Source: Catajapyx aquilonaris (lineage: Eukaryota). From it: a stretch of 64,000 bases of DNA. The stretch lies in assembly GCA_000934665.2 (NCBI GenBank), contig KZ537968.1, positions 1-64,000 on the forward strand, in the 5' to 3' direction. The position numbers were made by a program, and so were the translations under genes. This document shows, in pieces, positions 14,439 to 56,195 of this stretch (the first letter of the stretch is position 1; every line of letters begins with the position of its first letter). The notes beneath the pieces were generated by a model. That model ran no database searches and was not told the DNA's origin. It saw only the letters and a list, made by a program, of their open reading frames with translations.

Positions 14439-15122
14439 ATGGCCACTTTCGAGATCTCCCCTGAAGGGGAAATTGTGGGTTCGAAGGACGGTTTCCGCTA
14501 CGTGACTGCCGAAGAGAAGTACTGGCCTGCAATCATGGAGCACCTTCGAGAGCACTACTTCAGAGAGGAGGTCCTGTGCAAGTCCTTGGGTTGGCCCGAG
14601 GATGTGCACCAAGGGCTGATCCTGTACGCTGGGAAGGGTCTGACCGAGGGCCGTGACCTGGGTCTGGTGGCCATCGACGAGGCCACGGGCAAAGTGGTGG
14701 GGGTTCGGATCACACGGGTGGCCAGACGCGACGAGGAACGGGCAGTGAACAAGTTCAACTTCGGTCCAAACACCACCAAGATCATCAAGCTGTTCGACGA
14801 TCTGCAGGACGGACTGAACCTGTTCGACAAATACGCGGTGGACGAGATTGTGGAGTTCATCCTGGTCTCGGTGGACAGGGGCTATCGGAGGAGGGGTCTG
14901 GCCACTGAGCTCATCTTACGGAATCTGAGGCAGGCTAAGAAGTACGGGCTGTCTGCTTCTAAGGGCATCTTTACGTCGCTGTATTCGCAGAGGGTCGCGG
15001 AGAAGCTGGGTCTGGAGACGCTCAGGGAGTACCGGTATTGCGAGTACAGGTCGGACGACGGACCTGTCTTCCCTAACACGGATCCGCATCCTTCGGTCAA
15101 GCTCATGGGAAGGAGGTTTTGA
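14439..15122 (+). CDS. GNAT acetyltransferase, iAANAT/dopamine N-acetyltransferase-like (G1), 227 aa
   Basis: Motifs YFREEVL, VSVDRGYRRRGLA (acetyl-CoA motif A), FTSLYSQRVAEKLG, VFPNTDPHPSVKLM; intronless CDS. Confidence 0.92.
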   Translation: MATFEISPEGEIVGSKDGFRYVTAEEKYWPAIMEHLREHYFREEVLCKSLGWPEDVHQGLILYAGKGLTEGRDLGLVAIDEATGKVVGVRITRVARRDEERAVNKFNFGPNTTKIIKLFDDLQDGLNLFDKYAVDEIVEFILVSVDRGYRRRGLATELILRNLRQAKKYGLSASKGIFTSLYSQRVAEKLGLETLREYRYCEYRSDDGPVFPNTDPHPSVKLMGRRF

Positions 15123-17249
15123 AGCAGGGCACAATAATTATTAAGCCAACAGTCATCACTCCCAGTTACATCCTGTACCCTGTTTTGTAATGACACGGAC
15201 TAACTTCTAGGGTTAACTTTATGTAGAGGTGTTCTGGGTCTTCGCAGCCTCAAGGTGTGCCAACATGCCATTTAAAAAAAAGTAAGGTGTTGCCATGTTG
15301 TTGTATCTGTGGCATGTAGATGTTATAATGCTCTCTTTGCTTAATGATAATTATTTCAGTAGCGAGGGTGCGAAAACTAATCGAAGGTACTGTCTGATTT
15401 ATTCAGCTCCGGACTTCACACGTGGTCATTGCTGTCACCATTAACGCAATATAATTATAGCCAACGCCTGTCCTGTCCATGACAAAGGAATGCGCAGAGT
15501 GTCAATGAACACTCGCATTAATAATTTATATCACACATGTATGCAGTATGATTTAATTACAACATTGTTTGTGATACCACATAATTATGTTAGGTTAGTA
15601 ACAAGCGGTAACAAGTACAGTTCATGGAGGGGTGGACGGGTGAAGAGGGGGCTTGGTGACGTGGGTCCGGAGTTGAATAAAGCAGGTACAGTATGTTCTC
15701 TTGAGCTTGTGAACACACCTTGTCACCTCAACAGGTGAGCTAAGAACTCTGCTAGATGTTAGTCTGAAGCAGTACAAAACACACTGCACTAAAGGTCAAT
15801 CGGAGGATATTAATTTTTGGTAGCAATTATTTCAATCCAACACTTGATGTACTTACTTTGTACTCTTTATGTGCAGGGGTGCACTGGAGTAGTGATGACT
15901 TTAAATTAGACTTTTCTGATTGGATGATTATAGTTCAAATTGAAAGGTTTTATCGGCACCAGGGTGTGATGCTACTTCACCTGTTTAGTATACGTAAACA
16001 TCATTGTAGCATATCATTGTCGACTTTTAAATAATAATAAAATTGCGACCTTGCTTCTTCCTTGTCAAGTGTGACGCAATGTCGAGTGGAAATGGGCTTA
16101 TGCTTCGTGTCAAAAAAAAAGGAGCGACTGTCAAAGTGTGTTCATGGTCATTAGGAAGCAGGCATTAATCACCGTCAGAGTAGAAATTTTGTTCGTCATC
16201 TCCGCTTCAAACGTGGCTCAATTTTTATTTACATGATTGTTGACAGCATTGCTCGAAAGCGGGTATGTCATGTAAATATGCGCAGTAATCAATATATTGC
16301 CGAATGATTTTTATTTTTTATTTTTACTTAAATGGCCATCCCTTATCAGCTGGGAAATGACCATGTCATGCAGTGCAATGTTTGAAAAAAAAATGTTTAA
16401 TGTTCATTACGTCGTGCATATCAGATCTGGGTTGTTTGCCAGATAATCATATAAAAAAATGAGGTAGCCTATTATCATGCGATTGACGTTAGTGCACGCC
16501 AATGCTTTGTGCGTTTGATGTAGGCTGACCTGTTTGTAACTTCCTGAATAATCAGCTTGAGAACTTGACGTGACGCTTGCAATCTTCAACGATCTTCAAG
16601 CTGACAAAATGTGCCAACGTGGGTACTTGAGTGATACTGTACATTAATTTTAATATCGTTCGGTACTAATAGAGAAAAAATGAAGCCAGCTGTGCTGCAT
16701 ACTATTTCCTACACATTTGTCAAGTTTGTAATAACTACAAACGCTTCTTTTCAATTTTCTGCCCAATTATATTCTAGACATGCTTGTTCATGTAATGGTA
16801 CTGTAAGCAACTACATATTGCGTTAAACAAGCAGCAGGAAAACTATTTATTGTTCCTAAGCATGTGTCCAGCACGTGTGTACAACGTGCAATATTTGCCA
16901 AATTTGTGTTTTTTTTTCCTGGAATTGTCACTGCCGTGTGTTCCACAAAATAAAATTAGTTAATCATTTCATATTTTTTACTACTGGGGAGGGTTTGTTC
17001 GCCCTGGGTATTTCCACAGAGTGCAAAGTTCAGTCGACATGGAGGTGGAGCCGTGCTAATCTTTGTGCTGATATATGAACTAGAGTGAACCAGACTTCAC
17101 CCACTTTTTGGTCTCAGACTCCGAAAGGAACCTGTCAAAACAACATTGTAGCTCCTGCTGTTGTATGAAGAGCAATAGTGTAATTTTGAGGTAAGTAACA
17201 CGTTGAAAACTTGGTCACAGGTGATACTTAAACTGAATTTTTGTTCCAG

Positions 17250-17939
17250 ATGTCCGCCACTGTAATCAATATTGAAGACGAGGTTACTGGAGTTCAAGAT
17301 GGCTTCAGGTATGAGATTCTGGAGGAGAAGCATTGGCCTGCTGTTTTGGAGCACACTCAAAAGTTCTTCTTCAGGGAGGAACCAATGATGAGGTCTTTAG
17401 GTTGCACCGAAGACATGCAGAAAGGGTGTGTCCGATGGATTAAAGATGGGTTGGAGAAAGGGAAGCATTTGTCTCTGGTCGCATTTTGCGAGCAGACTGG
17501 TCAACTGGCAGGGGTCAGGGTGACCAAGATGGTTTACAAGGACCAACCGGTGCAACTACCAGACGGAGCAGTCAGAGGACCTGAGAGGATGAAGCTGGTG
17601 CGGACTGTTATGGAGTTGAACGAAGCAGCTGGAGATCTGTTCGCAGTGTACGGAGTGACAACAATCCAGGAGTTCCAGCTAGTATCTGTTGACCCTGCTT
17701 TTCGAGGCAGAGGACTGGGACGTGAGTTGATCCTGAGAAGTATGCGGTTGGGTAAACGGTTCGGTGCAGAGGTGTGTAAGGGAGTCTTCACGTCCATTTA
17801 TTCGCAGAGGATTTCAGCTGATTTGGGGTTCTACACCAAGGCCGAATTTTGGTACAAGGACTATTGTCAAGATGGAGAATTAGTGTTCACAAACGTAGGG
17901 CCACACACCAATGCATCACTACAGACAAGAGTGATATAA
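17250..17939 (+). CDS. iAANAT-like GNAT (G2), 229 aa
   Basis: FFFREEPM, SVDPAFRGRGLG, FTSIYSQRISADLGF, VFTNVGPH; acceptor TTCCAG abuts the ATG; upstream donor GAG|GTAAGT at ~17190. Confidence 0.92.
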   Translation: MSATVINIEDEVTGVQDGFRYEILEEKHWPAVLEHTQKFFFREEPMMRSLGCTEDMQKGCVRWIKDGLEKGKHLSLVAFCEQTGQLAGVRVTKMVYKDQPVQLPDGAVRGPERMKLVRTVMELNEAAGDLFAVYGVTTIQEFQLVSVDPAFRGRGLGRELILRSMRLGKRFGAEVCKGVFTSIYSQRISADLGFYTKAEFWYKDYCQDGELVFTNVGPHTNASLQTRVI

Positions 17940-18792
17940 TTTGGTAGCTCATATTATACATGCATGTGACAAAAACTTCCATTATGTAGGTATTCACATG
18001 TATGCATAATATTCGTCGAGTTGATAAACTGGCCCTGCATATTCTCAATAAATACTCCAGTTTGCACAACTGGTCTGAAAAATATGTACAGCGTCGTTAG
18101 CAATTTAATGCACTAGTTATTACACCTGGTGATTGATTTCAGTGCAAGAGGAAGTCTCGACATTCGACCTTCCCTTACAGCGAACAATAGATTTATGTCG
18201 CTCGGAAAGGCCATGTTTTATTCAGGAATGAATAATAAAATCTCTTGCTCCACTTTGTGCAATTTGCCTCATACGTCCTTGAATTAAAGCAGGATGGATT
18301 TGATCTGAGAGACGGAAGCAGCAGCGGCCGGTTAGTAATTATGACGCGAGAGTGGGTCCGTATGCATATTTCACAGTTTGACTTGTGCCTGCTTTCGCTT
18401 CCTCCAACCCACCTCCGACACTGAAGCGCACTTTTCCCTTCCTTCTAACTAATTAAGCCGCTCGGAATCTTTCATGAGAGATTCTGCTTCCTCTTTGATG
18501 AATTCTTCAAAGCTTCGATCCAAGATGGTGCTGCAGATATGACAAGCAGCACTCTATTTTCACCAGAAATTGAACATGTAACCAAGCAGTTTGGATATTT
18601 AAAGGACATTTATAATTGGACATTGAGCAGTTGGCTGAATTATAAAGTTGAGAATTACTTGATTGGAAAGAAAACGGGTTACAATATTGAGGAAATTATG
18701 TTTATTTCACTGTTTTCAGGCACAGAGCCTATAAATATAGAATATGTAATTTGCATTATATGGCATGGAGGACTGGATTAACCCACTTCCTC

Positions 18793-19491
18793 TTACAGTA
18801 CTTTGGACATAAGAGTGCAGGTTTGATGTTCTCCCATGTTCTTGAAGGCCATCTTTCCGCCGAACGTGTAGTCCTCATACCTTATCTGCGATTCGATCTG
18901 GAAGCCCAGCTTCTCCCCAACCCTTCTGGAGAAATTGGACGTGAAGTAGGCAATGACCAGCTTGACCCCCTTCTGCTTGGCCAGCCTCAGGCTCCTCAGG
19001 CACATCTCCAGAGCCAGCCCTCGTTGCCTGAACTTTGACCCGACCGAGAGGACCCTGAACTCCAGCACTCGGTCAACCCCATGCTTGTCGAACACGTTAG
19101 GTTTGACCATCTTGTCCAGCTGTGCCATGATGTCCACTACAGGCAGGTAGTCTCCGTAGTACTTGTCCATGCAGTGTCCGTCACTCAAGGCCTGCTGTCT
19201 GGTTAGTACTCGAGAGATTCGGATGCCTGCCAGGTCACCGGTGACCTCGTCGTAGGCTGCCAGGGACATGGTGGTGTCCGGGTTAAGTCCCATCCGGCCG
19301 TACTCTACGTTGCCCTCTACAATGCTTTGACTGGCATCGAAGCAGCCGGATGTAGGTTCGTCTCTGCTGAAGTCGCCTCCCAGTTGGTCCAACATGGCCG
19401 GGTAGTCTTCTGGGGTGGCCACTTTTATGCGGAAACCGTTCCAGATGCCCTCAACTGGGTCGGTGGCCGATATGGCCGGGGTGGTGGTCAT
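18793..19491 (-). CDS. iAANAT-like GNAT (G3), 232 aa
   Basis: DPVEGIWNGF, FSRDEPT, LSVGSKFRQRGLA, FTSNFSRRVGEKLGF; acceptor 3 nt before the ATG; donor CAG|GTAAGG at ~19756; TATAAAA at 19852-19846. Confidence 0.92.
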   Translation of the reverse strand: MTTTPAISATDPVEGIWNGFRIKVATPEDYPAMLDQLGGDFSRDEPTSGCFDASQSIVEGNVEYGRMGLNPDTTMSLAAYDEVTGDLAGIRISRVLTRQQALSDGHCMDKYYGDYLPVVDIMAQLDKMVKPNVFDKHGVDRVLEFRVLSVGSKFRQRGLALEMCLRSLRLAKQKGVKLVIAYFTSNFSRRVGEKLGFQIESQIRYEDYTFGGKMAFKNMGEHQTCTLMSKVL

Positions 19492-21723
19492 CTTCTGGTT
19501 AAGAAAAGTGAATGAGCACACTGCGTTTGGAAATACAGTGAGGCTTTAAACGCAAAGTGTAAAATATCCTGGCAGGTATGCTTCCCTCCGTGAGACCTTC
19601 ACATTTTTCATTTACAATCAAAATGCGAAGTTTCGACTTTAGAACAGATTTTCAGTCACATTTTGATTCATTCACCTGTTGCCAGGCCTTGAATAGATGT
19701 CAAGATTTTTGCAAGCTACTTGCATTACTTTCAATCATGTAATTATTACACCTTACCTGATTTTGAGGCATGGCTTAAGTCTCGGAAAGTCTGTGCTGAT
19801 GGTCGAAGAGAGTTACTTCTGCTTAATTAAGCGAGAACACACGTGTTTTATACACACTCCTTTTAGAGTGTCAGTCTCAAAGATAGCAGGTGACGTTTTG
19901 CCATAACGCCTGTAATTTCCCCATGGTGATATGTTACATCCTGTGATACGTTATCGACTGCCTAGTTGCCTGGTTTTTGATGTGACCTTGAAAATTCCGT
20001 GTTATTACGGCGATATTAAAGATACAGTGTGAGAAGAAGCAACTTAGATTGAGTTTTCTATGATACATGAAGTGCCACGCGATTTTTTTTTTTGTCTGCG
20101 AACTTTGGTATCAATCCATCGATATTTCCTTGCTGCCAGTATCTCAGGTTACATCACACCCTTTGTGTTTTATCAGCGACACTTGGTCTACGGCCGTACT
20201 TGAACTTGAACTTCAGATTTACCATGAAGATGTCAAGGGTGTTCTTCAAGGATGTTGCAGAAGAGACAGACCAAACTCCAGCACACTTTATGCTACAATG
20301 CACAATGCAGCTTAATATTCCAGATGTACTGTACTCACCGATGAATAGATGTAGGTTGTCTGTGTCCCAGCTCCCTCTGTGGCCATGTAGCTGTTGTGTA
20401 ATCAGCAGGGTGCACGGCTGTTCAAGGACAATGTTCTGCGAGGAATCCGCGACCGCGAAACAGAAATAGACATACGTATGAAAGGCGTATGCTTGCAGTA
20501 TTTGTCCCCAATATTTTTTTAAATAGTTTTGAAAAATATTGGTAATTGTGTACAGTTAGGTCGCATTGTTAAAGAGAGACGCTCTAGTATTACACTTTCG
20601 CGAGAATTAAATACTTTTTTTTGTCCGAATTAATACGTGAAGCGAATATCCTGGCAGTTGTGCAACTCTTCAGCCATCCTTGAAGGCAAGTTGTCTAATC
20701 GCCAGGATATGTTCCCTATCATTCTTCGTGAGAATACAACACTTGGTCAGCATATTCTATGAATTCTCTACAACGGCACAATCAAAAGTGACGGATAGAT
20801 TATGTATCAGTTTTGAAATTATTGGTTAAAAATCTCCATAATTATGCAGGATTTTATTTTACGTGTAGTTGCTGTTTGATGTATTTCGTACCTGGTCTCA
20901 GCGGAATCCGTCCTTCGCACGGCGTGTTTCCATGACAATGTAATCAACAATAATCAATCATTGTTAATACCATAGTTGCCATAGTTCCCAAACCTGGACA
21001 AGCAAACAAACAAACTTTGCATATATTTATGCATATAGACACGAAACGGGTATGGAATGGACAAACTTTGTATTATACTTTTTATATATACTGTACATAA
21101 GGTAGCCTATAACAAACCTACACGTGTTCCGTACTCTGCCAAAAAAAACTTTCAGCCATACGATTAACCAGAGTCATCATCTTTTTCTTTTCTCAGTTTT
21201 CATATTCACTTTGGGTATATGCTGACGGTAGTTGACATAATTATTATACACTAGTATAGTCCACTTTCTACCATAGTGGATGCTGCAGTAACACTGAAAT
21301 ATATTTACCGAATGAAAAAAGGAGGAAGTTAACTTTCTTAAATGCCAGCAAATTTTATTGAGTCAATCCTCTACTTTCAGTTGTCATAATAATACGTACT
21401 CGTACAGGTCAAACATGAATGCTCCGTTGGGAGCTTTTTGTGCAGATTTATAAGGCAGCTTGAGTACGATATGGTAGTACAGTATCGGATATTACTCATA
21501 CATGTTAGGTATATGAGATAAAGGACCGATGCATATACTCCGCATAATGAAATAAAGACTCCGTAGAAATAATCCCAGAGAAAGACTTGGGCGAGAGATT
21601 GACTTGAATATTCACCCTGTGCGGCACATCTCCGGATAATTATGTACAGTACTGTACTTTTAGAGTAGACATTTTGCAACTTATGACTTGGAATGAATGT
21701 GCTTTAAGAGATCATTTTTTAGA

Positions 21724-22431
21724 TTAAAGGGTTTTGGACATCAAGGTGCACATCTCATGAACCCCCATGTTGGTGTACACAATCTTGCCATCCTGCTCGT
21801 ACTCATCATATTTGATCTCAGCCTCCACCTGGAAGCCCAACTTGACTCCAACCCTCCTGGAGAACTTGGAGCTGAAGAAGGCCGTGGCCAAGTGACACCC
21901 TTCCCTTTTGGCCAGCCTCAGACTCCTGATGCACAGCTCCAAGGCGAGGCCCCTCTGTCGAAACTTGTCCCCAACGGACAGGATCCGGTACTGGTATATC
22001 TTGTCCACCGAGTGCTTCTCGAACAGATTGGCCACCGGCTTGACCTTCTCGCTGATGCGGTCCATGAAGACGAAGACTGCCGCGAAGTCCCCGTAGTACT
22101 TGTCGCTCTTCTCGTGTCCAGCGGCGTCCGGTTCGTCTTTCCTCAGCATCCGTGAGATCCGAACCCCGGCCACTTCCCCTGTGCTCTGGTCGTATGCCAC
22201 GAGCGAGTGTGGACTTGCGGACATGCCAATCCGACCGAACTCGACCACTCCGTCCACCGCGCTCTGGCTGGACTTGTAGAAGTTGCATAAGGGCTCGTCC
22301 TTGCAGAACTGGTATCGGACGTGCTCCAGCATGGCTGGAAAGTCAGGCTCTCGGGCGATTTGGAACCGGAAACCGTTCCAGGTACCCTCGATTGGGTCGT
22401 CGCCGGATATGACGATGTCTGCTGCCGGCAT
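21724..22431 (-). CDS. iAANAT-like GNAT (G4), 235 aa
   Basis: DPIEGTWNGF, FCKDEPL, LSVGDKFRQRGLA, FSSKFSRRVGVKLGF; acceptor at 22443-22442. Confidence 0.93.
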   Translation of the reverse strand: MPAADIVISGDDPIEGTWNGFRFQIAREPDFPAMLEHVRYQFCKDEPLCNFYKSSQSAVDGVVEFGRIGMSASPHSLVAYDQSTGEVAGVRISRMLRKDEPDAAGHEKSDKYYGDFAAVFVFMDRISEKVKPVANLFEKHSVDKIYQYRILSVGDKFRQRGLALELCIRSLRLAKREGCHLATAFFSSKFSRRVGVKLGFQVEAEIKYDEYEQDGKIVYTNMGVHEMCTLMSKTL

Positions 22432-23149
22432 TATGGAAATCCTGGAAAGTTTAAATAAATCATATAATTACGAGAGCAGCACAGAATACGTATAGGTATG
22501 CAATATTGCAGGCCCCGAATCAGTCAAAAAGGGCAAAACTGTCACCCAATTCCTTACACACTTCCCCTCCTCAGTGCTGACTAATTGAGATCAGGCAACA
22601 TACAGCAAATTATTCAAATTTAGTTCCGCCAGTGTGCATTCAATGGCAAGCTAATTAGCATTAGATAACCTGTTGGGAAACTTGTAATTAAATTTACCTT
22701 TTGTAGCACCGATGTAAACGTCAAGCGGAGGGTATGGCGACACGAGTCAGTTTCTCCGCCGCACACCTCGGTTAAGTGTTTCTCATTGACACTGATCTAG
22801 TACCCCCTGTGTCGTGACGTTCGTTCAATGCACGGGATCAGATTAGCACGAACTTTGGACATCAGCCAGGTGGATATATTGACCTTGAGGGCGGAAGAAT
22901 TATGCAAGCGGAGCACATGCTAAACCCGTAGTCGGACTACCATATGAGACCTTCGCATGTCAGAAAATAAATGCCCAGAAGGAAAGGTAAATATTGCCCC
23001 GATCGATTGATACTAGCGCTAGTTTTATTTCACAAAACCTATTGGCAGTTACTAATATTGCACATCAGTAGGTTTATTATGCTTCGTCATATGTAATAAC
23101 TAGTACATACATTGTGATTGAAACGGGGGAATATTTTATTGCAATATTT

Positions 23150-23854
23150 TTACAAGAGTTTAGTCATTAAGCAGAATGCTTCATGCACCCCCATGTCGTC
23201 ATACACGACCTTACCATCTTCCTGATATTCGTTGTACTTAATCTCTGATTCCAAGTAGAAACCCAGTTTCTCCCCGACCTTCCGTGAAAATTGGGATGAA
23301 AAATAAACCATGGCCAACCCGCACCCTTCCCTTTTGCCCAATCTCAGGCTCCTCAGACACATCTCCAGAGCCAACCCTCTCTGCCGATACTTGGTGCCAA
23401 CAGACAAGATGCGATACTCGTATATCTTGTCCACGTTGTACTTTTCGAATAAATTGCGTGGAGGCTTGACCATTTCGTTCGCTTGGTTCAGAATCCTGAA
23501 GACGACCAGATAGTCTCCGTAGAACTTTTCACTTTTCACCAGTGCTTTATCTGCATCTTCCTTCTTGAGGAGACGAGATATTCTGATTCCTGCCACTTCT
23601 CCGGTAGCTTCGTCGAATGCGACCAAAGAGTGCAGACCACCTGAGTACAAGCCAAGTCGGCCGTACTCCATCATTCCGTCGCACATGCTCTTGCTGCGCT
23701 TGTTGAACTTGGTGAGAGGCTCGTCCTTGCAATACTCTTGGAAGAGATGGTCCAGCATGGCGGGGAAGTCCTTCTCCTGAGCGATCTGGATCCTGAATCC
23801 GTTCCAGGAACCCTCGATGGGGTCGCTCGCTGATATTACCAGTTCGCCGGGCAT
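23150..23854 (-). CDS. iAANAT-like GNAT (G5), 234 aa; recent paralog of G6
   Basis: DPIEGSWNGF, YCKDEPL, LSVGTKYRQRGLA, FSSQFSRKVGEKLGF; acceptor at ~23876; AATAAA at 23140-23135. Confidence 0.93.
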   Translation of the reverse strand: MPGELVISASDPIEGSWNGFRIQIAQEKDFPAMLDHLFQEYCKDEPLTKFNKRSKSMCDGMMEYGRLGLYSGGLHSLVAFDEATGEVAGIRISRLLKKEDADKALVKSEKFYGDYLVVFRILNQANEMVKPPRNLFEKYNVDKIYEYRILSVGTKYRQRGLALEMCLRSLRLGKREGCGLAMVYFSSQFSRKVGEKLGFYLESEIKYNEYQEDGKVVYDDMGVHEAFCLMTKLL

Positions 23855-24652
23855 TGTCGGTTTCTCAAAATTAGCTGGAGAACAAAAAAAGCACTAATTA
23901 TTAAGAAGTTTACAGCAGTTTTACACCAACAATGTCGCCAATAACGCCAAAGTGGTGAAGTACAATACCAAGTACAATACGATACATTAGTTGATGAAAA
24001 ACGACAAGAAGGGTACTAAAACTAAACATAATAAAGTAGCTGACACATAAATGAGTTTATCCTTTTTTTACAGCTATTATTGCTGAGCAGACATCCTAGA
24101 TACGATATCCTGTAATTCAGCTGGAGAGTTACATAAGATTCTCAAACCACCTTTGCGGTGCAGTACGTTCGTTAATAGGCTAGATCAAATTAAAGAGACA
24201 AGGGACACTTGAGATAAAGAGCCTACGTATAGTGGTATTTTCATAGAGCAGACATTACATAAGCCACTTATTGATCCAATAGCAATGGTTATTCTTTAAT
24301 CTATAAAACTCTCAATATCCTAAGTGCATTTGTTGTGTAACAGAGCCAAGAAATGAGCTAGTTACACTTCTTTATCAGTGTACTTAAAATGCGTGTACTT
24401 GTAAGTTATTAAAGCATTATTATTACTAAGCAAATACCGTAACGCAGGTTTAAAGAAGACGCATGCATACATTGCGACCTTGTGATTTTTTTTTTGCATA
24501 ATTACTTTTTCATGTTAGAGTAAACAGTTATTGCGCCGAATTTTTAAACCAATGGGTTTGCCGATGTGATTCCGGTACCAATTACACCATCACATCTATA
24601 AATATTGAGTATTTAAATGTGCAGTACTATTACATAATTATGGTGTACTCAC

Positions 24653-24785
24653 GACAAGCAACGGAGAGGTGTCGACGAAATAGTACCCGTCGGATGACAA
24701 TGCTTAACGTAGCGAGTTGCGTCAGGGTCGCAGTCCACGAAGCTTATGATCGTGAAGGACATTCTACTCAATACCACTTGCTGAA
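24653..24785 (-). promoter_or_regulatory. Putative non-coding first exon of G5
   Basis: Donor GTGAGTACACCA (GT at 24652-24651) is identical to the donor upstream of G6; exon body is similar (GAAGC..GTGAAGGAC..AATACCA). Confidence 0.55.
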
Positions 24786-24926
24786 ACATAGCCGACGAGA
24801 CATCCACAGATGGCGCCAAAACTCAGTCAAAATCACGGTCAAAACCGAAACGTTTGTTGTAAATGATCGGCACTCACTGTTATGCTTATGAAAATTAGGA
24901 TTTATTGTCGTCTGTTTGTGTCATTT

Positions 24927-25631
24927 TTACAAGGCCTTAGTCATCAAGCTGACCGATTCATGCACCCCCATGTCAGTAAACATAAGTTTACCATCCTCCT
25001 TGTACTCGCTGTATTTAATCTCCGATTCCAAGTAGAACCCCAGCTTATTTCCAACCCTTCTCGAAAAATTACCCGTGAAATAAACCATGGCCAATCCGCA
25101 CCCTTCCCTTTTGCCCAACCTCAGGCTCCTCAGACACATCTCCAGAGCCAATCCTCTTTGTCGATACTTGGTTCCAACAGACAGGATGCGATACTCGTAT
25201 ATCTTGTCCACGTTGTACTTGTCAAACAAGGTTCCAGGTGGCTGGACCATCTGGTCCAGCTGACCCAAGAGTCTGAAGACAACCTCAAAGTCTCCGTAGT
25301 ACTTATCGCTCTTCTCGTGTGCTTTCTCAGCCTCGTCCTTCGTGAGCAGACGGGATATTCTGATCCCTGCCACTTCTCCAGTGGCTTCGTCGAATGCGAC
25401 CAAAGAGTGAAGACCACCTGAGAGCAGGCCAAGTCGGCCGTACTCGACCATTCCGTCGCAGATGCTCTTGCTGTGCTTGTTGAACTTGGTTATGGGCTCG
25501 TCCTTGCAGTACTCTTGGAAGAGATGGTCCAGCATTGCGGGGAAGTCCTTCTCCTGAGCGACCTCGATCCTGAATCCGTTCCAGGAGCCCTCGATGGGGT
25601 CGCTCGCTGATATTACCAGTTCGCCGGGCAT
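24927..25631 (-). CDS. iAANAT-like GNAT (G6), 234 aa
   Basis: Start MPGELVISASDPIEGSWNGF as in G5; YCKDEPI; LSVGTKYRQRGLA; FTGNFSRRV; acceptor at 25642-25641; AATAAA at 24906-24901. Confidence 0.93.
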   Translation of the reverse strand: MPGELVISASDPIEGSWNGFRIEVAQEKDFPAMLDHLFQEYCKDEPITKFNKHSKSICDGMVEYGRLGLLSGGLHSLVAFDEATGEVAGIRISRLLTKDEAEKAHEKSDKYYGDFEVVFRLLGQLDQMVQPPGTLFDKYNVDKIYEYRILSVGTKYRQRGLALEMCLRSLRLGKREGCGLAMVYFTGNFSRRVGNKLGFYLESEIKYSEYKEDGKLMFTDMGVHESVSLMTKAL

Positions 25632-26382
25632 TGTTATTGGCTGAAAATTAGACAGAAAATTAATGATGTGCAATATAATATCTAAGACCTGAAAAATGCA
25701 GAACGATTTGAGGAGTGACATATATTTTTAAAAAGTGACCTGTAATCTATATTGGAAAATTGATGACTAGACTATATCAGAATAGACACCCTTCCTGAAT
25801 TTTGAATACCATGTGGCATTTTGAATTTTAGGTCAATATGTGGTAGACGTAATAATATGTAGAACGGGCACGTGTCTGGAGGTCGGAATGCAATGCATGC
25901 TTGTTATGAATAATATTACTCAACTAGTGCTTTTAATGGATGTGGTAAGCCCTTTTTGTTGTCATTCACGGCATCGCAACTCGATAGCAAAATAAAGATA
26001 TGTGCATATCTACGGTTGAGTGTTACCTTATGTAAGGCCCTGGAATTATCAATGATGATAATGCTAAATGTGATTAGTTGTAGGTAACAATAATTATTTA
26101 GTTATAAAACAATGCTGCAACACTTCTACTGATTCTGCAATAAGATGGAAGCAGATATATTCTGCAGCTTTGTTCTGCGCTTCTATTATGTAGTTTTGAC
26201 AAACGTTAGGAATAAGTGTCTGCAGTACTGCGGAAAGCTTATTGTGACATTACCTATTAATATGTACGACCATGCGGCTAATAAGTAGAATAATTCATTC
26301 AAACGATCTTTGTTACCTAAGTTAATGAATGTAGAATGTTCATACTATTACTACAAACGTACTAGAATAATGGTGTACTCAC

Positions 26383-26540
26383 CTTACAATTAGGATTTCG
26401 TAGTAAAGCAATACCTGTCTGCTGCAGTACTTTGCTGAAGGCCAACTAATGTTGAAGCGTGTTATGTCAGGACCACACACAATCTGCGGAGAAAGCTCGT
26501 GTGAAGGACGTTTGCTACGTCACTAAATACCATTCATTGA
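26383..26540 (-). promoter_or_regulatory. Putative non-coding first exon of G6
   Basis: Donor AAG|GTGAGTACACCA (GT at 26382-26381); TATA-like TATTATAA at ~26585-26578. Confidence 0.5.
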
Positions 26541-27519
26541 GATATCTGCAGCCTCTCTGTGCGTTCCAGCAGGTGCATTATAATAGCTTGCGGTAGTAAT
26601 TTACAGCAATAAAGCCACAGTACTGTACATGCTATCGACGATGATTACGCGGTACTAATTGTATAGGGAAATAAAATATCAATACGTAATTCTACGTAGC
26701 TTTAAGCATCATGTACGAAGAGTCTCTCTTTTTATTTGGAAACATTGGCCATCTTCTTTTAAGTGTTGATATGCATTTTATGTAACACATGATTGTATTT
26801 ATCCGCTCCTTTACTCATCACAAGTCAGTTATTTACAAAACACTTGGCCCTCTCCTTTAAGATTGAACCTGCTGCCTCTCTCCCTCTCCCATGACCTTTT
26901 CCGAGGTGGTACTGACCTCCGGATTCTGCGAGACCTAATTTGGCTCATTCCTGAATTCCTCTCACGCCAAAGAGGATGGTGCCCTGAAAGGCAGTCACCC
27001 TCACTCGCACTCTAATAAATGGACTCTCAAGTTATATAACCCCCATCCGGCTGCTGCTGCACCCGCCAAAGGGAAACCCTTAAATGGGGGGTTTGCACAA
27101 GAGGGAAATGACGTGAAGGGTGTCATCCTGGTGCATCCCTGTGTGTGCATTGGGTGTAATACGTACGTGTCATTATTATTAGCAATGTGTTTTACTTCTT
27201 TGAAATATAGGGGAATTACCAGGTATCTCTGCGACACACTTTTGCAGGCTGCGCATATTGGCTAAATTAGGTATGAAAATGCAGGGCTTTGTCAGAATAT
27301 TTAATCCGTTCATACAAATGGCAATCACTTATAGGCCGAGCAGTGAACATAGACATATTGCATACATCTGTCTATATTAAAAGTAATGATAAAAGCTAAC
27401 AAGTACTGCGGATGGGCGCATCTTATCTGTGAAAAAATAGCACGAATTAAACCTTGATAAGCCCCGTAGCATTTTTATTTATGTACATGTTTCTAACACC
27501 TTGTGAACGTAATATGAAG

Positions 27520-28224
27520 TTACAAGCATTTGAACATCATGACGCATGAAACATGAGGTGGCTTCATATCCTTAAAGACAATTTTCCCATCCTTCTCCCA
27601 CTCTAGATATTTGGTGTCATCGTATGCCTGGAATCCCAGCTTCTCTCCAATCCTCCTGGAGAAAGCAGACGTGTAGCAGACCTTGACCACCTTGATCCCT
27701 GACCTTTTGGCCAGTCTGATGGCACGCAGGCTGAGCTCGTATCCCAGGTTCTTCTGCCTGTACTTGGAGTTGACCGAAAGGAGATGGAATTCGACCACTT
27801 TGTCCACCCCAAACTTGTCGAACATGTTGGGCTGCATCTTGTCCCCCATGTCGTACATCATGTCGTAGAAGTACTTGAAGTTTTTGTCCTGCATCTTCGG
27901 GTTGGGTTCCTGTGGCTTGAACGCCGTCTCTTTCTGCCACAGGTGAGAGATCCTGACCCCTGCGACCTCACCTGTCACCTCGTCGTAGGCCACCAGAGAC
28001 TGACCTCCAGATTCGCTTAGGCCCAGCTTGGCATACTCATCCAGGCTTTCCTCTAGACCCGGGGTCGTACCCAAACAGTTGCACATGGGTTCGTCTATCA
28101 GGAAGTAAAGGCGGATGTTCTCCAGCATGGCGGGGTGGTCCTCTTTTGTGGCGATCTTGAAACGGAGGCCATTCCAGGAGCCCTCGATGGGGTCGTCTGG
28201 TGAGATGGTCGGGCCGTTGCTCAT
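27520..28224 (-). CDS. iAANAT-like GNAT (G7), 234 aa
   Basis: DPIEGSWNGL, YFLIDEPM, LSVNSKYRQKNLG, CYTSAFSRRIGEKLGF, FKDMKPPH; acceptor at ~28237. Confidence 0.93.
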   Translation of the reverse strand: MSNGPTISPDDPIEGSWNGLRFKIATKEDHPAMLENIRLYFLIDEPMCNCLGTTPGLEESLDEYAKLGLSESGGQSLVAYDEVTGEVAGVRISHLWQKETAFKPQEPNPKMQDKNFKYFYDMMYDMGDKMQPNMFDKFGVDKVVEFHLLSVNSKYRQKNLGYELSLRAIRLAKRSGIKVVKVCYTSAFSRRIGEKLGFQAYDDTKYLEWEKDGKIVFKDMKPPHVSCVMMFKCL

Positions 28225-29678
28225 TTTTTTTTTGACTGGAAGTCAGAAACAATCATTATGACCAAAAAACTTTGTTACGAAAGAAGCCAAAATTTTAAAT
28301 TGAGATTGACATTCCGTGACAGCGACTCCTAATGACTTTCAGAAAATACAGCCTGATAAGCTCAGCAGACAAGTGTTTCTCAACGGCTAAGATAATAACG
28401 GGACGTGACACTCAAACTCTTGGATTAGAAAAGACAAAGTTTTGGCAGGTCCAACAGATAATGCGATTAGGGAGGCTGCACGTGAAACTTTGGGTTACTA
28501 TGAGCGAAGTGTCAGCTAATTTTACAATATTTTGCATAGTAAACAGTTTTGAAGGGTATAGAAAAAACTATATAATTTTTTGAAAAGGCCAGATAGTGTG
28601 GCTGGACATTCTTCAAAATTTTAATAGGCTATGTATAATCAAAATGAGTAATTGATGCGGATATTTTTTCATGTGACATATTTGGCTAGTGTACTGTACA
28701 GTATAGCTATCCTACGTAGTTATAAGTACTTATGAGAGTAATACCTTGCCTGCTTTTAACGGGACTCGTAGTAGGTCACGTCAGTCACCTGTGGAGTGCT
28801 TCACCAGAGTGAAGTATTCACACTCTTGTGTACGGTGCATTATCTGATGTCTGGTCCGTCGCATGGGCAGCCAATCAAGGCTACCAGGATTACGTCCTTC
28901 GAATGCTGAAGAGGCTTCACTTCCGTGATGAATATTCATTATGTTCATAATTGAATTATTCTGATTTCCTGCTTGCTTACGGGAAGCTGTTTTGTTCGAA
29001 TCTGCCTTTTGTCCGCTACTTTTATTGAAGAGTTTGTGGATATGCCAGTGAAAAATGAATGGAGCTGGCACAACTTGACACGACATCCGGTTAAAAAAGT
29101 GTGCAATAACAGTTATTAAGTTTACTTTTCAGGCACCCAGCCAGCCTATTAGCTAATACCGGTTCTTAATTGAGGTGAAGGTTTATTTGAACAACATGCA
29201 ATTTTGTTTACTCTCACCATCAGCTTAATATGTAATTGCACTCTAGAATATTAGCGTTATTTTAATAAACGTGGGTTTGATAGTTCAAAATATAATTTTG
29301 TGGCTGTAATTAACCTGTCACATTCTACCTCATTCACCGGATAAGTATAGGCGTGATATGTATACAATACTGTATAGTAATAATTCCGCACGTGAAGTTG
29401 GTTGCCTACGTGCCAGGATTCAGTTCATTTATGGCCGTATTACTCGATTGATGGACACAACTTTTATGAAATGTGGATTTCAACATTCCTGACATACTCT
29501 GAGAAACGGCCTAAAATTCGTGACAAAGTCTTACCTGTAACAAACCACAGCGACGATATGCAAAACCTACTGTAGAAAAAAAGAGAAAGAAAAGTCTACT
29601 CCTCCAGCTCTGGTCAAACGTGCCAAAAACAGTCACATTTATTTCATACTGTCCACAAGCATAATATAGCACACCCTG

Positions 29679-31586: not shown

Positions 31587-33015
31587 TTGTATAGACACCG
31601 TGTAACAGTCACATGCCACGCTCGCAATGACTCTCCCAAAAATTAGGCCCTTTCCAACCCAAAAAAATTAGCTTCCAGATTGTTAAAATAAATAAAATTT
31701 CTGGAACTCTCGCATCCTAGACATATCGAGCAACTCACGTCCTTCAATCAAAACATGCACCAAAACACGCTACAACAAAAGGTGCGGTTCAATCTATGAA
31801 TAATTGTTGAATAAGTTGCTCCAATTTAATTGTTGAGTAAATAATGCTTAGCGAGACAAAAGGGGGGGGGGGGCTACTAACCTTGGCCGGATGTCTGGTT
31901 CCTTGTGGCTTCTTTCCTTCCTTGACCAAATGACAGAAGTGAACTGGAAGAGTCCAAAAGGTGGAATGTTGAGTGTCTTTCATTCATGTCCCCTTCCTTC
32001 CTATGATGCACCAGAGGGGTGAGGAAAGGTGAGTCAGAAGCGGGCCACGAATAGCGACGACACCAAACTGTTATCTGTAGGCGCCAGAGGTACTGACCAG
32101 TAGGAACAATGTCCCTCCTATTTACAGAATGCAAGCGATGCACTGCTGGAAGGTGAAAGTTGCTTTACACAACCCGAAACTGGTTCGCTCCAGACTCGAA
32201 AGATGATGCCGGATGATTAACCCATTATTTTAGGCGCCTGACCCTCCTGGGCTTGGCTGGGCGGGACACTGCCGCCGTATGCAACCCTACCTGGTGGCCC
32301 ACCGGTGTTTGTCATGGTCCCAAGGGCACCCAATTTATTCCGCCCTCCTGTTTCCACCTTTACAAAAATTTTCCCACCCGAAATTCCCCCTAACCACAAA
32401 GGTCCGAAATTCCGGGCTACCCTTCCGGTTGCTACATGATTCGTAGCTATAGTGTCTGACTGTCCTGTCCAGTTTTAACAGGATACGGTTGGACATTTTA
32501 TTTGAAAAAATGTGACGCTTGTGATGCCGGACTATAGCCATCAGCATGATGGTATTGGATAAATCGGATATGAAGTGATTACGTTTATGATATTTCAAAA
32601 TAAGACGCCTCTAAAAACACTATTTTTCGCATTGGCTAACTCTCATATTAAAGTTTCATTTCCATTAATAATGTGGATTTTTTTTAATACTTTAATGTAA
32701 AATCCAAATGAAATTCAAAAATTTTATAGGACATTATTGCTTCTCTGGTGGTTCCATATAATATACGTAGTTACTTTACCAAATAGGCCAGTATGTTTCA
32801 GCCAGACATAATTATTATAGCAGTCAGCCAAATTCTCACCTGTTGACTCCGCGGTGGTGTGCTGGAATAATAGAAGGTATCAAACTACTCTTGCTGTTAA
32901 TTCAAGGTTAGGCGATAAAGTTGTATGGGCCCAGATGGGAGCAATTGTACATAATATAGTGACTTCCTAAACCAACATCTGCATGTTACAGCCAATCACC
33001 CCCAATCGCACTGTA

Positions 33016-33102
33016 AACGTTGCTAAACTCATCAGCCGCTGCCGATTTATTGTTACTCTTTTGTTTCGCTGTGGCAGCGGCTGAGTTTAGCAACGTACTC
33101 AT
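33016..33102. mobile_element. Shorter, inverted copy B of the 31437-31586 MITE family
   Basis: ACGTTGCTAAACTCA...TGAGTTTAGCAACGTACTCA; interior TTATTGTTACTCTTTTGTTTCG is the reverse complement of CGAAACAAAAGAGTAACAATAA in copy A. Confidence 0.7.
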
Positions 33103-33550
33103 AAACCTTGCATACACGTTCAGGTTGCATAATACTTGGATGTACCAACCTGTAATTTTGTGTCACTTTTTGAAATAAGACTCAAGTGTACTTGTGTGCA
33201 ACTGTAATAAATAAATAAATGATTACTTAATTGATAGTTCAGTAATTATACGAAATGTTTTTAAAGAATGTGCCGCATCGATGAGAAATCATCAATATAA
33301 TTTTTGCTAAAATATTTTTTGAAAGTTATTTTCATTGCCATTCCAAATTATTTGGGCCCAAGAAGGAGAGAATGGCCGGAAATCGTCGGTTCAGCATCAG
33401 GGTTGTAGATCTTGATACGTTCCTTTTCCTCAGGTTGAATAGTTGGTAAGTACGCAAAAATACACTATTAAGTTATCAACACATCATTTTATTTATCCAA
33501 TTGACATGTAATATTGCAGATTCAGGCCATGTTAACCCGCCCAATAAAAA

Positions 33551-34255
33551 TTATGTGAGACGCTTAATCATCATGATAGCAGCTTTGTGAGGAGCGTCCA
33601 CCTCGAATACCACCTTCCCGTCCTTCTTGTAATCAGTGTACAAGAACTCGGTGACTGGTTCGAACCCCAGCTTTTCCCCTACCCTCCTGGAGAATGCCGA
33701 TGTGAAGTAGGCCTTGACCAAGGGCACACCAATCCTCTTGGCATGTCGTAAGCTCCGGAGGATCATTTCCTGAGCCAGATTCTTCCGACGGTAAGTCCGA
33801 TCCACCGAGACCAACCGGAACTCCTCAATCAGGTCAACTCCGTACTTCTGGAATATGCTCGGGGTAACGGAGTCGCTCAGGTCGTAAAATACGTCCAGAA
33901 GAGGCTGAGCTTCCTGGTACTTTTTCTCTCGTTCCTTCAGCGCCTCTTTCTCCAGCTCGGGTGTGAGTTGGACGGAGATTCGAACCCCGGCCACTCTACC
34001 GGTGTCCTGGTCCAGTGCGACCAGACTGACCTTCTGCCCAGGGGTGAGCCCGGGCCTGGCCCAGTCCAGGATGGATTCGACCACGTTTGGGGTGTATCCG
34101 ACGTGGTGGCAAAGGGGCTCGTCACGGCAGAAGTTTTCTCGGACGTGGTCCAGCATCGCGGGGAAGTCCTCCTCTCTAGCTATGCGGATCGTCAGCCCAT
34201 TCCAGGGACCCTCGATGGGGTCATCGGGGTTTATTGGGGGCGCCTCGTCGGTCAT
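33551..34255 (-). CDS. iAANAT-like GNAT (G9), 234 aa
   Basis: MTDEAPPINPDDPIEGPWNGL, FCRDEPL, VSVDRTYRRKNLA, FTSAFSRRVGEKLGF, VFEVDAPH; acceptor at 34266-34265. Confidence 0.93.
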   Translation of the reverse strand: MTDEAPPINPDDPIEGPWNGLTIRIAREEDFPAMLDHVRENFCRDEPLCHHVGYTPNVVESILDWARPGLTPGQKVSLVALDQDTGRVAGVRISVQLTPELEKEALKEREKKYQEAQPLLDVFYDLSDSVTPSIFQKYGVDLIEEFRLVSVDRTYRRKNLAQEMILRSLRHAKRIGVPLVKAYFTSAFSRRVGEKLGFEPVTEFLYTDYKKDGKVVFEVDAPHKAAIMMIKRLT

Positions 34256-38152: not shown

Positions 38153-38839
38153 ATGAGCGACACACCCCCGGAAATCCGGGGCAGTGACGAAGTAGAGGGC
38201 CTCCACAACGGGTTCATGTTCCAGATCGCCCAAGAGTCTCACTACCCTATGATCTACGAGCAGATCCGATCGCAGTTCTGTAAGGACGAGGTGACCGGCA
38301 AGTCCCTGGGATACTCGGAGGCTCTGGCCACCAGCGACGAGATATACTCCTCGCACATCCTGAGGGAAGGAGCCGGGATGTGCCTGGTGGCCATCCACCA
38401 GGAGAGTGGTCAGCTGGCCGGACTTCAGCTGGCCTGCGTGCTTCGAAGGGGCGAGAAGCACCTGGAGGACCAGCGGTACGACACGCAGTTCCGGAAGATC
38501 CTGGGTCTGCTGGCTTACGTTGATGCACAGGGAGACCTGTTTGGGAGGTACCAGGTGGACGAGGTCTTCGAGCTGAGCATGACTTCGGTGGACAGTCAGT
38601 TCAGGGGAAGAGGACTGGCCCCTGAGCTGGTGCTGAGGAGCCTGCGTCTTGGGACGAAGCATGGGCTGAAGGTGGCGTGTGCCATTTGCACAGGACTGTA
38701 CTCCCAAAAGGTGATGGCCAAGCAGGGGATGGTGGACGTGTACGAGGTCAAATACGACGAGTACAAACCAAATGGAGAGGTGGTGTTCACTAACACGCAT
38801 CCTCACACGTGTGTCAAGCTGATGGCCAGAGAGATATAA
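38153..38839 (+). CDS. iAANAT-like GNAT (G10), 228 aa; by eye the most Dat-like C-terminus
   Basis: FCKDEVT, TSVDSQFRGRGLA, ICTGLYSQKVMAKQG, YDEYKPNGEVVFTNTHPHTCVKLMAREI; acceptor CCCCACAG ends at 38133. Confidence 0.93.
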   Translation: MSDTPPEIRGSDEVEGLHNGFMFQIAQESHYPMIYEQIRSQFCKDEVTGKSLGYSEALATSDEIYSSHILREGAGMCLVAIHQESGQLAGLQLACVLRRGEKHLEDQRYDTQFRKILGLLAYVDAQGDLFGRYQVDEVFELSMTSVDSQFRGRGLAPELVLRSLRLGTKHGLKVACAICTGLYSQKVMAKQGMVDVYEVKYDEYKPNGEVVFTNTHPHTCVKLMAREI

Positions 38840-40089: not shown

Positions 40090-40199
40090 CAGGGATGGAA
40101 AAAGAAGCGCTTCTTGGAAGGAAGCGCTTCTTTTTTCCATGTTCAGGGTTGGAAAAAAGAACCGCTTCCTTCCAAGAAGCGGTTCTTTTTCCATCCCTG
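40090..40199. mobile_element. 110-bp hAT-superfamily MITE with a perfect 8-bp TSD
   Basis: CCCATCCC|CAGGGATGGAAAAAGAA...TTCTTTTTCCATCCCTG|CCCATCCC (TSD at 40082-40089 and 40200-40207); almost wholly palindromic. Confidence 0.92.
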
Positions 40200-42963: not shown

Positions 42964-43635
42964 ATGAACAACAACATCCAAGACGATGGCATCTACGGCT
43001 GCTCCGACGGGATCAGATACGTACCAATGGAGGAGAGCATGTTCCCAGAGATCCTGAAGCACATGAGAGAATACTTCACCAGAGACGAAATACTTGGAAA
43101 ATCCCTGGGATACACAGAGACTCTGGCTGACGACATCTGCGATTTCACCAAGAACAACATGACCGCCGGAATTGGTTTTTCTGTAGTGGCTCTGGACGAC
43201 AGCACTGACGAAATAGTCGGAGTCCGGATTTCCAAAGTCGGGATGAAGTCCGACGATCATCCGGAACTAGTGTGCGGACCGGATTTCCTGAAGGTTATAA
43301 CCTTCCTGGGGTTTCTGGAGTCTCATGGCGATGTGTATGCAAAGTATGGAGTGGACGAGCTTTTCGAGTTTGTCCTGGTCTCAGTTTCGTCCAAGTACAG
43401 AGGCAGAGGGATAGCTTCACAACTGGTGGACAGAAGTCTACGTTTGGCCAGAAGCAAAGGGTTCAAGTTGGTTAAAGGAACGTTCACGGGGCTGTATTCG
43501 CAGAAAATTGCGAACAAATTTGGGTTTCAGGTGGAGTCGGAGGTTTTCTATAAGGATTACAAGGTGGACGGAGAGGTTGTGTTTAGCAACACTGGCGAGC
43601 ATCCTTCGGGGAAATGGATGGTCAAAGTTTTGTGA
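42964..43635 (+). CDS. iAANAT-like GNAT (G11), 223 aa
   Basis: GIYGCSDGIRY, YFTRDEIL, VSVSSKYRGRGIA, FTGLYSQKIANKFGF, VFSNTGEHPS; acceptor TTGCAG ends at 42951. Confidence 0.93.
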   Translation: MNNNIQDDGIYGCSDGIRYVPMEESMFPEILKHMREYFTRDEILGKSLGYTETLADDICDFTKNNMTAGIGFSVVALDDSTDEIVGVRISKVGMKSDDHPELVCGPDFLKVITFLGFLESHGDVYAKYGVDELFEFVLVSVSSKYRGRGIASQLVDRSLRLARSKGFKLVKGTFTGLYSQKIANKFGFQVESEVFYKDYKVDGEVVFSNTGEHPSGKWMVKVL

Positions 43636-44244: not shown

Positions 44245-45168
44245 ATAAGCAGGGAATTATGTATTCATTTATATTGCAGCTTAATTTACGTAAGGTATAG
44301 TTATATGGGCTTTGCACGTTCATGAACAAATTTGCACGTTTTCATAATATATTCGCATTAATGAATGTAATTACTGCATAATTAAAAGCACTACTTGACG
44401 TCAAAACCTCCATCGATAAATGACTGGCCTTCTACTACAGAATATGAGGCACAGCTATGGGCGATACTAAAAATCAGTGCTCTTTACATCCTAAGCCTCT
44501 CGAGGCATGCTTGAGCCTAATTATTTTTTTTTTCGAGCTGACAGGTTCTTACTGGGTCTATACTTTGAGGAAGTGTACAATTATGGGGATTGGTATTATT
44601 ATAGGCTAGTTCTGTATACAATGTATCGGATCAGCAGGGGGATTTTAAAAACTCGTTAAAAAGATAGCGTTTTTTTCGATGTAGGCAACAAGAGAACGGG
44701 GGGAGTATAATATCGATTTTCTTGCCTGAGGATGTACTGCATAGAAGTACTCTACAAAGTTTGAACAGAATCCGGCCGGTTCCAACTACTAGTGCCTGGA
44801 GTGTTACATTATTTTGTATGCCATTTACCGAATGTTGCATGATCTCATGGGCGAATAGTGCACAAATTAATATTAGCTTAAATCAAAAATTGATATGCAA
44901 TTTGGCGATATTTTAAATTTCCGGGTTTGATTGCACTTTTTTATCATATAACTAGAACTAGTATTCTTACTCTAACAAGTTCGCTGTGCCCTTTAAACAC
45001 TCACTATTTCTTACTCGGTCGGGATTTCTTGCGGTTCAGCTCATTACACAGTTAATGAGCGCGAACCGACCAGAAACCCTGCGCGAATAACAACACTATA
45101 TCCGCTGACTATTAAAAATGTCGCACATTATGCATTTTTCATTCTTTTCAGAATATGAGCTGCTAAAT

Positions 45169-45840
45169 ATGAATAACATTGAAGATAATGATATCTACGG
45201 ATGCTCCGATGGAATTCGGTATTCGCCAGTAGATGAGAGCATGTTTCCAGACATACTCCAGCACATCAGGGAATACTTCAGTGCGGACGAAATACTTGGC
45301 AAGTCCTTAGGCGTCACCGAGGCTTTGACCGACGACATTTGCGACTTCGCCAAGAAAAATCTGGCCGCCGGAAAGGACCATTCCATCGTGGCTCTGGACG
45401 AAAGCACTGGCGAAATAGCCGGAGTGTTCATATCCAAAGTGGCTATAAAATCAGAGCATCATCACGACTCCAAAGTGTACGGACCTGATTTTACCAAGAT
45501 TTTGGACATCATGGATTACTTGGAGTCACAGAGCGATGTGTTTGAAAAATACGGTGTGGACCGGTGTTTCGACATTAGCATTGCGTCCGTGTCCACAAAG
45601 TACAGAGGGAAAAGGATAGCTTCTCATCTGGTGTCCAGGAGTCTTCGTGCGGCCAAAAGTAAAGGGTTTAAATTGGCCAAAGGGACTTTTACTAGTCTGT
45701 ACTCGCAAAGGATTGCGCACAAGATGGGGTTTCAGGTGGAGGCTGAAGTCTTGTACAAAGATTATGTGGTGGACGGACAGGTTGTGTTTTCCAATACGGA
45801 GGAGCATCCTTCTGCTCAGTGGATGGTCAAAATCATGTGA
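45169..45840 (+). CDS. iAANAT-like GNAT (G12), 223 aa; paralog of G11
   Basis: DIYGCSDGIRY, YFSADEIL, ASVSTKYRGKRIA, FTSLYSQRIAHKMGF; acceptor TTTCAG ends at 45151. Confidence 0.93.
   Translation: MNNIEDNDIYGCSDGIRYSPVDESMFPDILQHIREYFSADEILGKSLGVTEALTDDICDFAKKNLAAGKDHSIVALDESTGEIAGVFISKVAIKSEHHHDSKVYGPDFTKILDIMDYLESQSDVFEKYGVDRCFDISIASVSTKYRGKRIASHLVSRSLRAAKSKGFKLAKGTFTSLYSQRIAHKMGFQVEAEVLYKDYVVDGQVVFSNTEEHPSAQWMVKIM

Positions 45841-56132: not shown

Positions 56133-56195
<63 letters not shown>
56133..56195 (+). repeat. (AAT)~21 microsatellite
   Basis: Directly visible. Confidence 0.95.

Follow-up and report, generated by a model that had tools for sequence, protein, structure and literature searches.

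A twelve-gene tandem array of predicted insect-type arylalkylamine N-acetyltransferases in Catajapyx aquilonaris

Introduction

Why would a genome keep twelve strongly diverged N-acetyltransferase genes side by side in some 31 kb of DNA? The question is raised by Catajapyx aquilonaris, in which the first 64,000 nucleotides of contig KZ537968.1 (GenBank assembly GCA_000934665.2; hereafter the window, read as eukaryotic DNA with translation table 1) carry an array of genes resembling the arylalkylamine N-acetyltransferases (AANATs) of insects. An earlier note, written from the letters of the window, proposed a single-locus, lineage-specific radiation of such enzymes. Putative insect-type AANATs (iAANATs) number 13 in Aedes and 8 in Drosophila, with paralogs that differ in their substrates, as described in passages of PMC6070697. 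Those numbers are genome totals drawn from several old clades, whereas the array holds 12 genes in 31 kb from one or two local lineages. We give an even chance to the reading in which one uncharacterised iAANAT branch expanded in tandem long ago and was kept by selection, with diversified amine specificity and a role in amine clearance.

Results

The window contains 22 ATG-started open reading frames (ORFs) of at least 150 aa; twelve encode GNAT paralogs and all of these lie within positions 14439-45840 (g01-g12; Table 1), in agreement with the 12 intact ORFs of 223-235 aa in ~31 kb described by the earlier note. This size range assumes that g06, g10 and g12 start at the homologous methionine, their longer ORF starts preceding a splice-acceptor-like CAG. 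The copies share 28-82% pairwise identity in an end-to-end alignment of 239 columns. They do not run head to tail throughout: seven minus-strand genes (g03-g09) form an inner block that is flanked by five on the plus strand (g01, g02, g10-g12). No 13th copy or fragment was found when an array profile was compared with all six-frame segments of at least 15 aa in the window (next E-values 1.7 and 4.2), tblastn across the window gave no match better than E 0.2 outside the 12 genes, and neither search found pseudogene debris of array genes in the window. Ns in the window are confined to 2450-2475 and 4139, and the array has none.

Sequence and predicted fold place the 12 genes in the iAANAT family, as had been proposed. 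Compared with PDB sequences, the array profile matched Aedes aaNAT2 (E 3e-42), the Tribolium AANAT (1e-40) and Drosophila Dat (4e-33); insect AANAT-type proteins accounted for 12 of the 14 matches (E 3e-42 to 3e-13), the next match being at 8e-07. The top protein-atlas clusters for g09 are aralkylamine N-acetyltransferase (score 0.98). When an AlphaFold model of g01 (pLDDT 90.9) was used as a Foldseek query, insect AANAT entries occupied the first 13 ranks, with TM values of 0.79-0.88 to the best structural matches (6v3t, 4fd6). The hallmark of iAANATs is a GNAT fold with helices inserted between strands 3 and 4 (PMC4394704), and in the g01 model, the one copy to which this test was applied, helices 110-123 and 128-132 lie between strands 86-96 and 136-145. 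Pfam matches are weak: two of the 12 copies (g01 and g11) reach the curated PF00583 cut-off and five have no match at E 0.01.

The catalytic machinery is largely retained. In Drosophila Dat, roles have been assigned to an Asp46-Arg153 switch, to Glu47 as the general base, to Ser182 and Ser186 as members of a proposed triad and to His220 (sections of PMC3429931, PMC7427786 and PMC6070697). Dat numbering was carried onto the array through alignments, and residue presence, not contacts, was scored. Asp/Glu46, Arg153, Ser/Thr182, Ser186 and His220 are each found in all 12 copies, and Glu47 in 11 (g01-g07, g09-g12), with Asn in g08; the positions of Dat/AANAT1 (3te4, 6k80, 5gii) are thus kept, except Glu47 of g08, at 24-26% overall identity. 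Aedes aaNAT2 (4fd5/4fd6) and Tribolium 6v3t likewise agree with the array in length, fold and catalytic positions at ~28% identity. The remainder of the DEPLN motif is loose (Pro in 7/12, Asn in 0/12). Gly156, in the pyrophosphate loop of motif A, is present in eight copies and replaced by Asn in g07, g08 and g09 and by Arg in g12; Asn also occurs in this column in 8 of 66 other rows, and it may therefore be tolerated there. Position 192 is Lys in 11 copies and Asp in g02. Phe/Tyr43 is retained in 12/12 and an aromatic residue at position 64 in 11/12. Mean column identity within the array falls from 0.85 at catalytic positions to 0.64 at coenzyme A (CoA) contacts and 0.39 over all columns. The motif order that the earlier note ascribed to all 12 copies holds for Ser/Thr182, Ser186, Arg153 and His220; its first motif is found in 11 and SV...R..G in 8, and a KLGF said to be present in most copies is literal in 7.

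The phylogenetic position of the array was examined with relatives drawn from a profile search seeded with the array, which gave 3271 matches at E 0.001 among 1.84 billion representatives; the best 150 of the 3271 were used, and nearer relatives may exist. With seven cluster members added, these yielded 157 domain rows from 150 proteins (seven proteins were dropped for short matches and seven gave two rows). Both a 169-row FastTree and a 47-row LG+C20 tree recovered a minus-strand clade that includes a database protein, P0001 (support 100/98), and a plus-strand clade (90/75). Both array clades join a 28-row clade (SH 93 in FastTree; 93/96 under LG+C20) whose eight named rows are all Collembola, and in the 47-row tree the minus-strand block joins this springtail clade weakly (78/63) on the best tree. 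Within the array the tree follows gene order, with g05 and g06 joined by g04 and then g03, and with g07+g08, g01+g02 and g11+g12 as pairs; sisters are neighbours, which fits stepwise local duplication. A single origin of the 12 was neither recovered nor rejected: the best tree implies two changes, one change is seen in 16% of bootstrap trees, and forcing the array to be monophyletic cost 2.1 log-likelihood units (p-AU 0.36). Of the proposed single-locus, lineage-specific radiation, it is the local character that these trees support.

The array lies outside the clade with Anopheles AANAT1 (P0066) and Dat-like P0054, and outside the P0008-type clade of aaNAT2 and Tribolium 6v3t; one-to-one orthology with dispersed insect AANATs, which would have spoken against the earlier note, is contradicted. 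Arg stands at Dat position 88 in 10/12 copies and Asn at position 90 in none, whereas Asn90 is found in 18 of 19 aaNAT2-like and 21 of 27 AANAT1 rows. P0001, the sole return of each of two word-index protein searches, may come from a related species as an orthologue or be a paralog located elsewhere, and an alignment-based scan of metagenome contigs found no relative among 601 pattern matches. The springtail clade (Allacma CAG7824551.1, CAG7833343.1, CAG7829192.1 and CAG7727827.1; Orchesella CAL8134422.1, CAL8111442.1 and ODM97598.1) groups with the array and shares Arg88 (19 of 28 rows) and a variable pocket, and one Allacma model holds two domains; the clade differs in having 30-34% identity to the array, a His220 column that is not kept and a clade of its own (100/99). 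Its rows (P0002, P0003, P0015, P0018, P0026, P0030 and 22 more) make up a large AANAT-like radiation that is apparently undescribed.

Local multiplication of AANATs recurs in arthropods, as the springtail sister radiation and two-domain insect models indicate. Seven of the fetched proteins carry two AANAT domains (for example Allacma, Abscondita, Ampulex and Asbolus models) and two consecutive Drosophila pandora AANAT genes share one contig, which we take as merged or adjacent tandem genes. The best matches of the flanking STK16 kinase among crustaceans, insects and springtails show 58-66% identity to it. A tree of this one gene with 34 rows places it in none of three groups, namely winged insects (98/96), springtails (100/100) and the malacostracans sampled (99/97). 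Such an early-branching pancrustacean placement would explain the scarcity of close relatives.

The copies are retained under purifying selection, in keeping with the earlier note's point that every one of them is kept intact. The ratio of nonsynonymous to synonymous rates (dN/dS, NG86 estimate, 11 of 66 possible pairs) was 0.16-0.54 in all 11 pairs, each with an upper bootstrap bound below 1, and amounted to 0.20 for g05/g06 and 0.21 for g11/g12. Among same-residue codons of g05 and g06, synonymous differences number 6 in the 75 that precede codon 83 and 38 in the 118 that follow it (permutation P 0.003), pointing to probable partial gene conversion over approximately the first 82 codons.

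The coding sequence is a single exon in 12/12 genes. All copies have a CAG no more than 20 nt before the homologous ATG, preceded in 11 by a pyrimidine tract that is clear by eye, and this arrangement suggests a non-coding first exon. Contigs from one public run (X1), of unrecorded kind and from which no expression level can be derived, were mapped over 13500-33400, which covers 8 of the 12 genes (g01-g08). They skip 22440-22697 and 23874-24653; the CT..AC ends of these gaps correspond to minus-strand GT-AG introns, with acceptors at the CAGs that precede the ATGs of g04 and g05, respectively. Difference-free X1 pieces lie in g02, g04, g05, g06 and g07 among the matches listed (7 of 22 records); no X1 contig covers the g08 bins (28772-31427) or the 5′ half of g01, a coverage gap that says nothing about silence. 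The earlier note would have yielded had most copies been unexpressed; on this point the GT-AG-spliced contigs speak for g04 and g05 only. In g06, the X1 contigs differ at five letters, each identical to the g05 letter; editing was ruled out, the differences being those of a g05 contig placed on g06. The first exon of g04 ends ~450 nt downstream of the g05 stop codon, and that of g05 ~270 nt downstream of the g06 stop codon (22697-23150 and 24653-24927). This very tight spacing leaves little room for promoters, and read-through or dicistronic transcripts are possible. Upstream regions of the copies share little sequence, and each gene seemingly has its own non-coding first exon.

Pocket residues are highly conserved across insect AANATs according to sections of PMC3429931 but vary among the 12 array copies. 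Ten amine-pocket positions were chosen from two Dat papers before testing, and five groups were tested without correction. Identity in the pocket was 0.30 versus 0.39 over all columns for the array (P 0.14), 0.30 versus 0.49 for the minus-strand block (P 0.03) and 0.19 versus 0.31 for the springtail clade (P 0.02). The insect clades showed the reverse, with the pocket above the mean in AANAT1 (0.45 versus 0.34) and aaNAT2-like rows (0.46 versus 0.36). All 12 ten-residue pocket strings are distinct, most changes being hydrophobic swaps, and g03 and P0001 share ten of ten pocket residues at 75% overall identity (chance 0.06). At the level of sequence, these comparisons are suggestive of pocket diversification across the array.

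The claim that every copy bears the canonical catalytic motif fails at g08. Its Asn47 is the only Asn in the column among 160 residue-bearing rows of 169 and aligns letter for letter at this position with the laboratory Dat E47N chain (PDB 5gii), a mutant for which we found no paper; judged by sequence, g08 would be its natural counterpart. The Tyr64 position of g08 is Lys or Ala, depending on the alignment. Replacement of the Glu by Ala nearly abolishes activity in four iAANATs, while Drosophila AANATL2 stays largely active without it (reported within PMC6070697); since AANATL2 tolerates the loss, g08 may lack activity, work slowly or be built differently. The copy is not decaying: its reading frame is intact, on a branch that is long (0.67), it has acceptor and polyadenylation signals, its dN/dS against g07 is 0.54 (0.40-0.72), and Tajima rate tests gave no significantly faster rate for g08 than for g07 with any of five outgroups. 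At 0.2 changes per site, 1 of 500 simulations of neutral mutation left an ORF as long as that of g08 open.

The surroundings of the array were also surveyed. A non-coding 1.67-kb element at 31437-33101, with 56-nt inverted repeats (91%) and no ORF above 95 aa, lies between g08 and g09; X1 contigs join arms similar to those of this element with short spacers, and it probably represents a MITE-like repeat family. A 1.55-kb X1 joint at 31497-33047 was rejected as a splice, as it sits between inverted-repeat arms. Further near-perfect inverted repeats at 11496-11667 (70 nt, 99%), 1949-2185 (108 nt, 90%) and 40090-40199 (50 nt, 96%) are probably foldback or MITE-like. To the left of the array, the 887-aa ORF may resemble arthropod CG7065-like proteins. 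In the 18 kb to the right (45841-64000) no coding gene was recognised and long frames look non-coding, small spliced exons not having been searched for. An Rfam search gave no match.

Table 1. Genes of the AANAT array and neighbouring coding features in the window
Feature	Position	Strand	Description
887-aa ORF	5633-8296	+	No Pfam match; atlas lead of 0.86 only; Arg/Ser-rich frame at 3470-4066
STK16 kinase gene	12284-13484	-	Flanks the array, divergent from g01, not a member; three coding exons by eye
g01	14439-15122	+	iAANAT-like, 227 aa; catalytic Glu, Thr, Ser, Arg and His intact; PF00583 above cut-off
g02	17250-17939	+	229 aa; sister of g01 (97/87); Asp at Lys192 position; contig piece 17313-17904
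g03	18793-19491	-	232 aa; 75% identity to P0001, pocket positions 10/10 the same
g04	21724-22431	-	235 aa; non-coding first exon ~22697-22876; 256-nt GT-AG intron in 5′ untranslated region
g05	23150-23854	-	234 aa; non-coding first exon from ~24653; 778-nt GT-AG intron in 5′ untranslated region
g06	24927-25631	-	234 aa; with g05 the youngest pair (82%); signs of gene conversion over ~codons 1-82
g07	27520-28224	-	234 aa; sister of g08; Asn at Gly156 position; contig piece 27340-28233
g08	29679-30386	-	235 aa; intact ORF; Asn at catalytic Glu47 position; non-aromatic at Tyr64 position
g09	33551-34255	-	234 aa; deepest branch in minus-strand block
g10	38153-38839	+	228 aa; terminal branch longer than that of any other copy
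g11	42964-43635	+	223 aa; sister of g12 (66%); PF00583 above cut-off
g12	45169-45840	+	223 aa; Arg at Gly156 position

Discussion

Under the reading that we favour, the array would have undergone an inverted duplication early on and then grown stepwise by local duplication, a history expected to give a tree matched to strand and order. By analogy with the biochemistry of Dat, 11 of the 12 copies would be soluble acyl-CoA:amine N-acyltransferases with an ordered mechanism, in which binding of acetyl-CoA comes first, the site is then closed by the Asp46-Arg153 switch and Glu47 acts as general base beside Ser/Thr182 and Ser186. Each copy may have a rebuilt amine pocket, so that the set would act on a broader choice of amines than a single Dat-like enzyme, and g08 would be an atypical copy that has been retained and whose chemistry is weak or altered. 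Most likely, the enzymes would inactivate or clear amines, both endogenous and dietary, in different tissues. This role is proposed by analogy with insects, in which monoamine oxidase activity is limited (as stated in part of PMC6070697), and with amphioxus, whose seven intronless AANATs share 30-86% identity and include two assayed enzymes with broad amine ranges, detoxification having been proposed (from sections of PMC2897805). The amphioxus enzymes differ from the array in belonging to the non-vertebrate AANAT subfamily, in lying on three scaffolds and in being backed by assays. A lineage-restricted aaNAT with its own function has also been described in moths (within PMC13248844).

Several points weigh against this picture. 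The pocket test is non-significant for the full set of 12, its ten columns are borrowed from Dat with five lying in loosely aligned helices, and the clades used for comparison consist of sampled representatives at 50% identity whose labels come from a few named members. NG86 is a simple estimator, third positions are saturated or GC-biased and distant pairs are near saturation; run X1 is a single study whose kind is not recorded, and it may stem from the source sample itself; and the physiological role is a guess by analogy. Nothing in the analysis singles out any of the roles in cuticle, secretion, detoxification or signalling that the earlier note suggested.

How far pocket variation reflects function separates the favoured reading from one in which the copies are birth-and-death isozymes: promiscuous amine acetyltransferases with overlapping biochemistry, maintained for gene dosage or to serve different tissues and stages, their pocket changes being tolerated drift. 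We find this version doubtful, though deserving of serious weight: the pocket P value for all 12, the preponderance of hydrophobic swaps, the separate first exons with little-shared upstream regions and the conversion between g05 and g06 would all be in keeping with it, whereas drift fits poorly with a pocket that is conserved above average in insect single-gene clades and below average here, with the identical pockets of g03 and P0001, and with a window free of pseudogene debris. The changes in the CoA loop (Gly156 to Asn in g07-g09 and to Arg in g12; Lys192 to Asp in g02) and the retention of g08 without its general base could instead mark a dedicated biosynthetic cluster for lineage-specific amides, such as long-chain N-acyl amines, gland secretions or cuticle agents, with some copies using non-acetyl acyl-CoAs. 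iAANATs that make long-chain amides are documented in passages of PMC6070697; however, CoA-contact columns are conserved overall and no amine- or fatty-acid-pathway gene was recognised within the window, and we judge such a cluster quite unlikely.

That the array represents the Dat/AANAT1 or aaNAT2 of this lineage, expanded to serve N-acetyldopamine sclerotisation or the turnover of neurotransmitters, would account for aaNAT2, the Tribolium enzyme and Dat being the best solved relatives and for the retained aromatic residues at positions 43 and 64, but it is very improbable given the placement outside both insect clades and the absence of Asn90 from every copy. An assembly artefact or a decaying pseudogene cluster is refuted for the array as a whole: g08 alone is atypical, while the divergence between copies, the absence of N in the array, dN/dS values well below 1, the rarity with which a g08-length frame stays open by chance and the spliced contigs for g04 and g05 all speak against it. 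A bolder reading, which we think unlikely, would make the array and the springtail radiation an undescribed third iAANAT branch that multiplied separately in two early-branching pancrustacean lineages, as a GST-/UGT-like conjugating family or a lineage-specific amide factory with pockets for amines beyond the known arylalkylamine and polyamine range; g08 would then be a selected Glu47Asn pseudo-enzyme or binder, or have a different acceptor chemistry.

The literature search found no 12-gene single-locus iAANAT array and no springtail-related branch, although unsearched supplements and surveys may cover clustering; the word 'acetyltransferase' is absent from the main texts of two springtail genome papers, whose supplements may list the family. 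The iAANAT family and its multiplication are already known, and the textbook picture is unchanged. What the locus offers is a compact natural series of 12 small predicted enzymes, single-exon and presumably soluble, in which a common catalytic scaffold carries 12 different pockets. In a family of which few members have been assayed, this series could show which pocket residues govern the choice of amine, and g08, with its natural Glu47Asn change, would provide a test of the disputed general-base role. More broadly, the array points to an unassayed branch of the family in which springtails also share.

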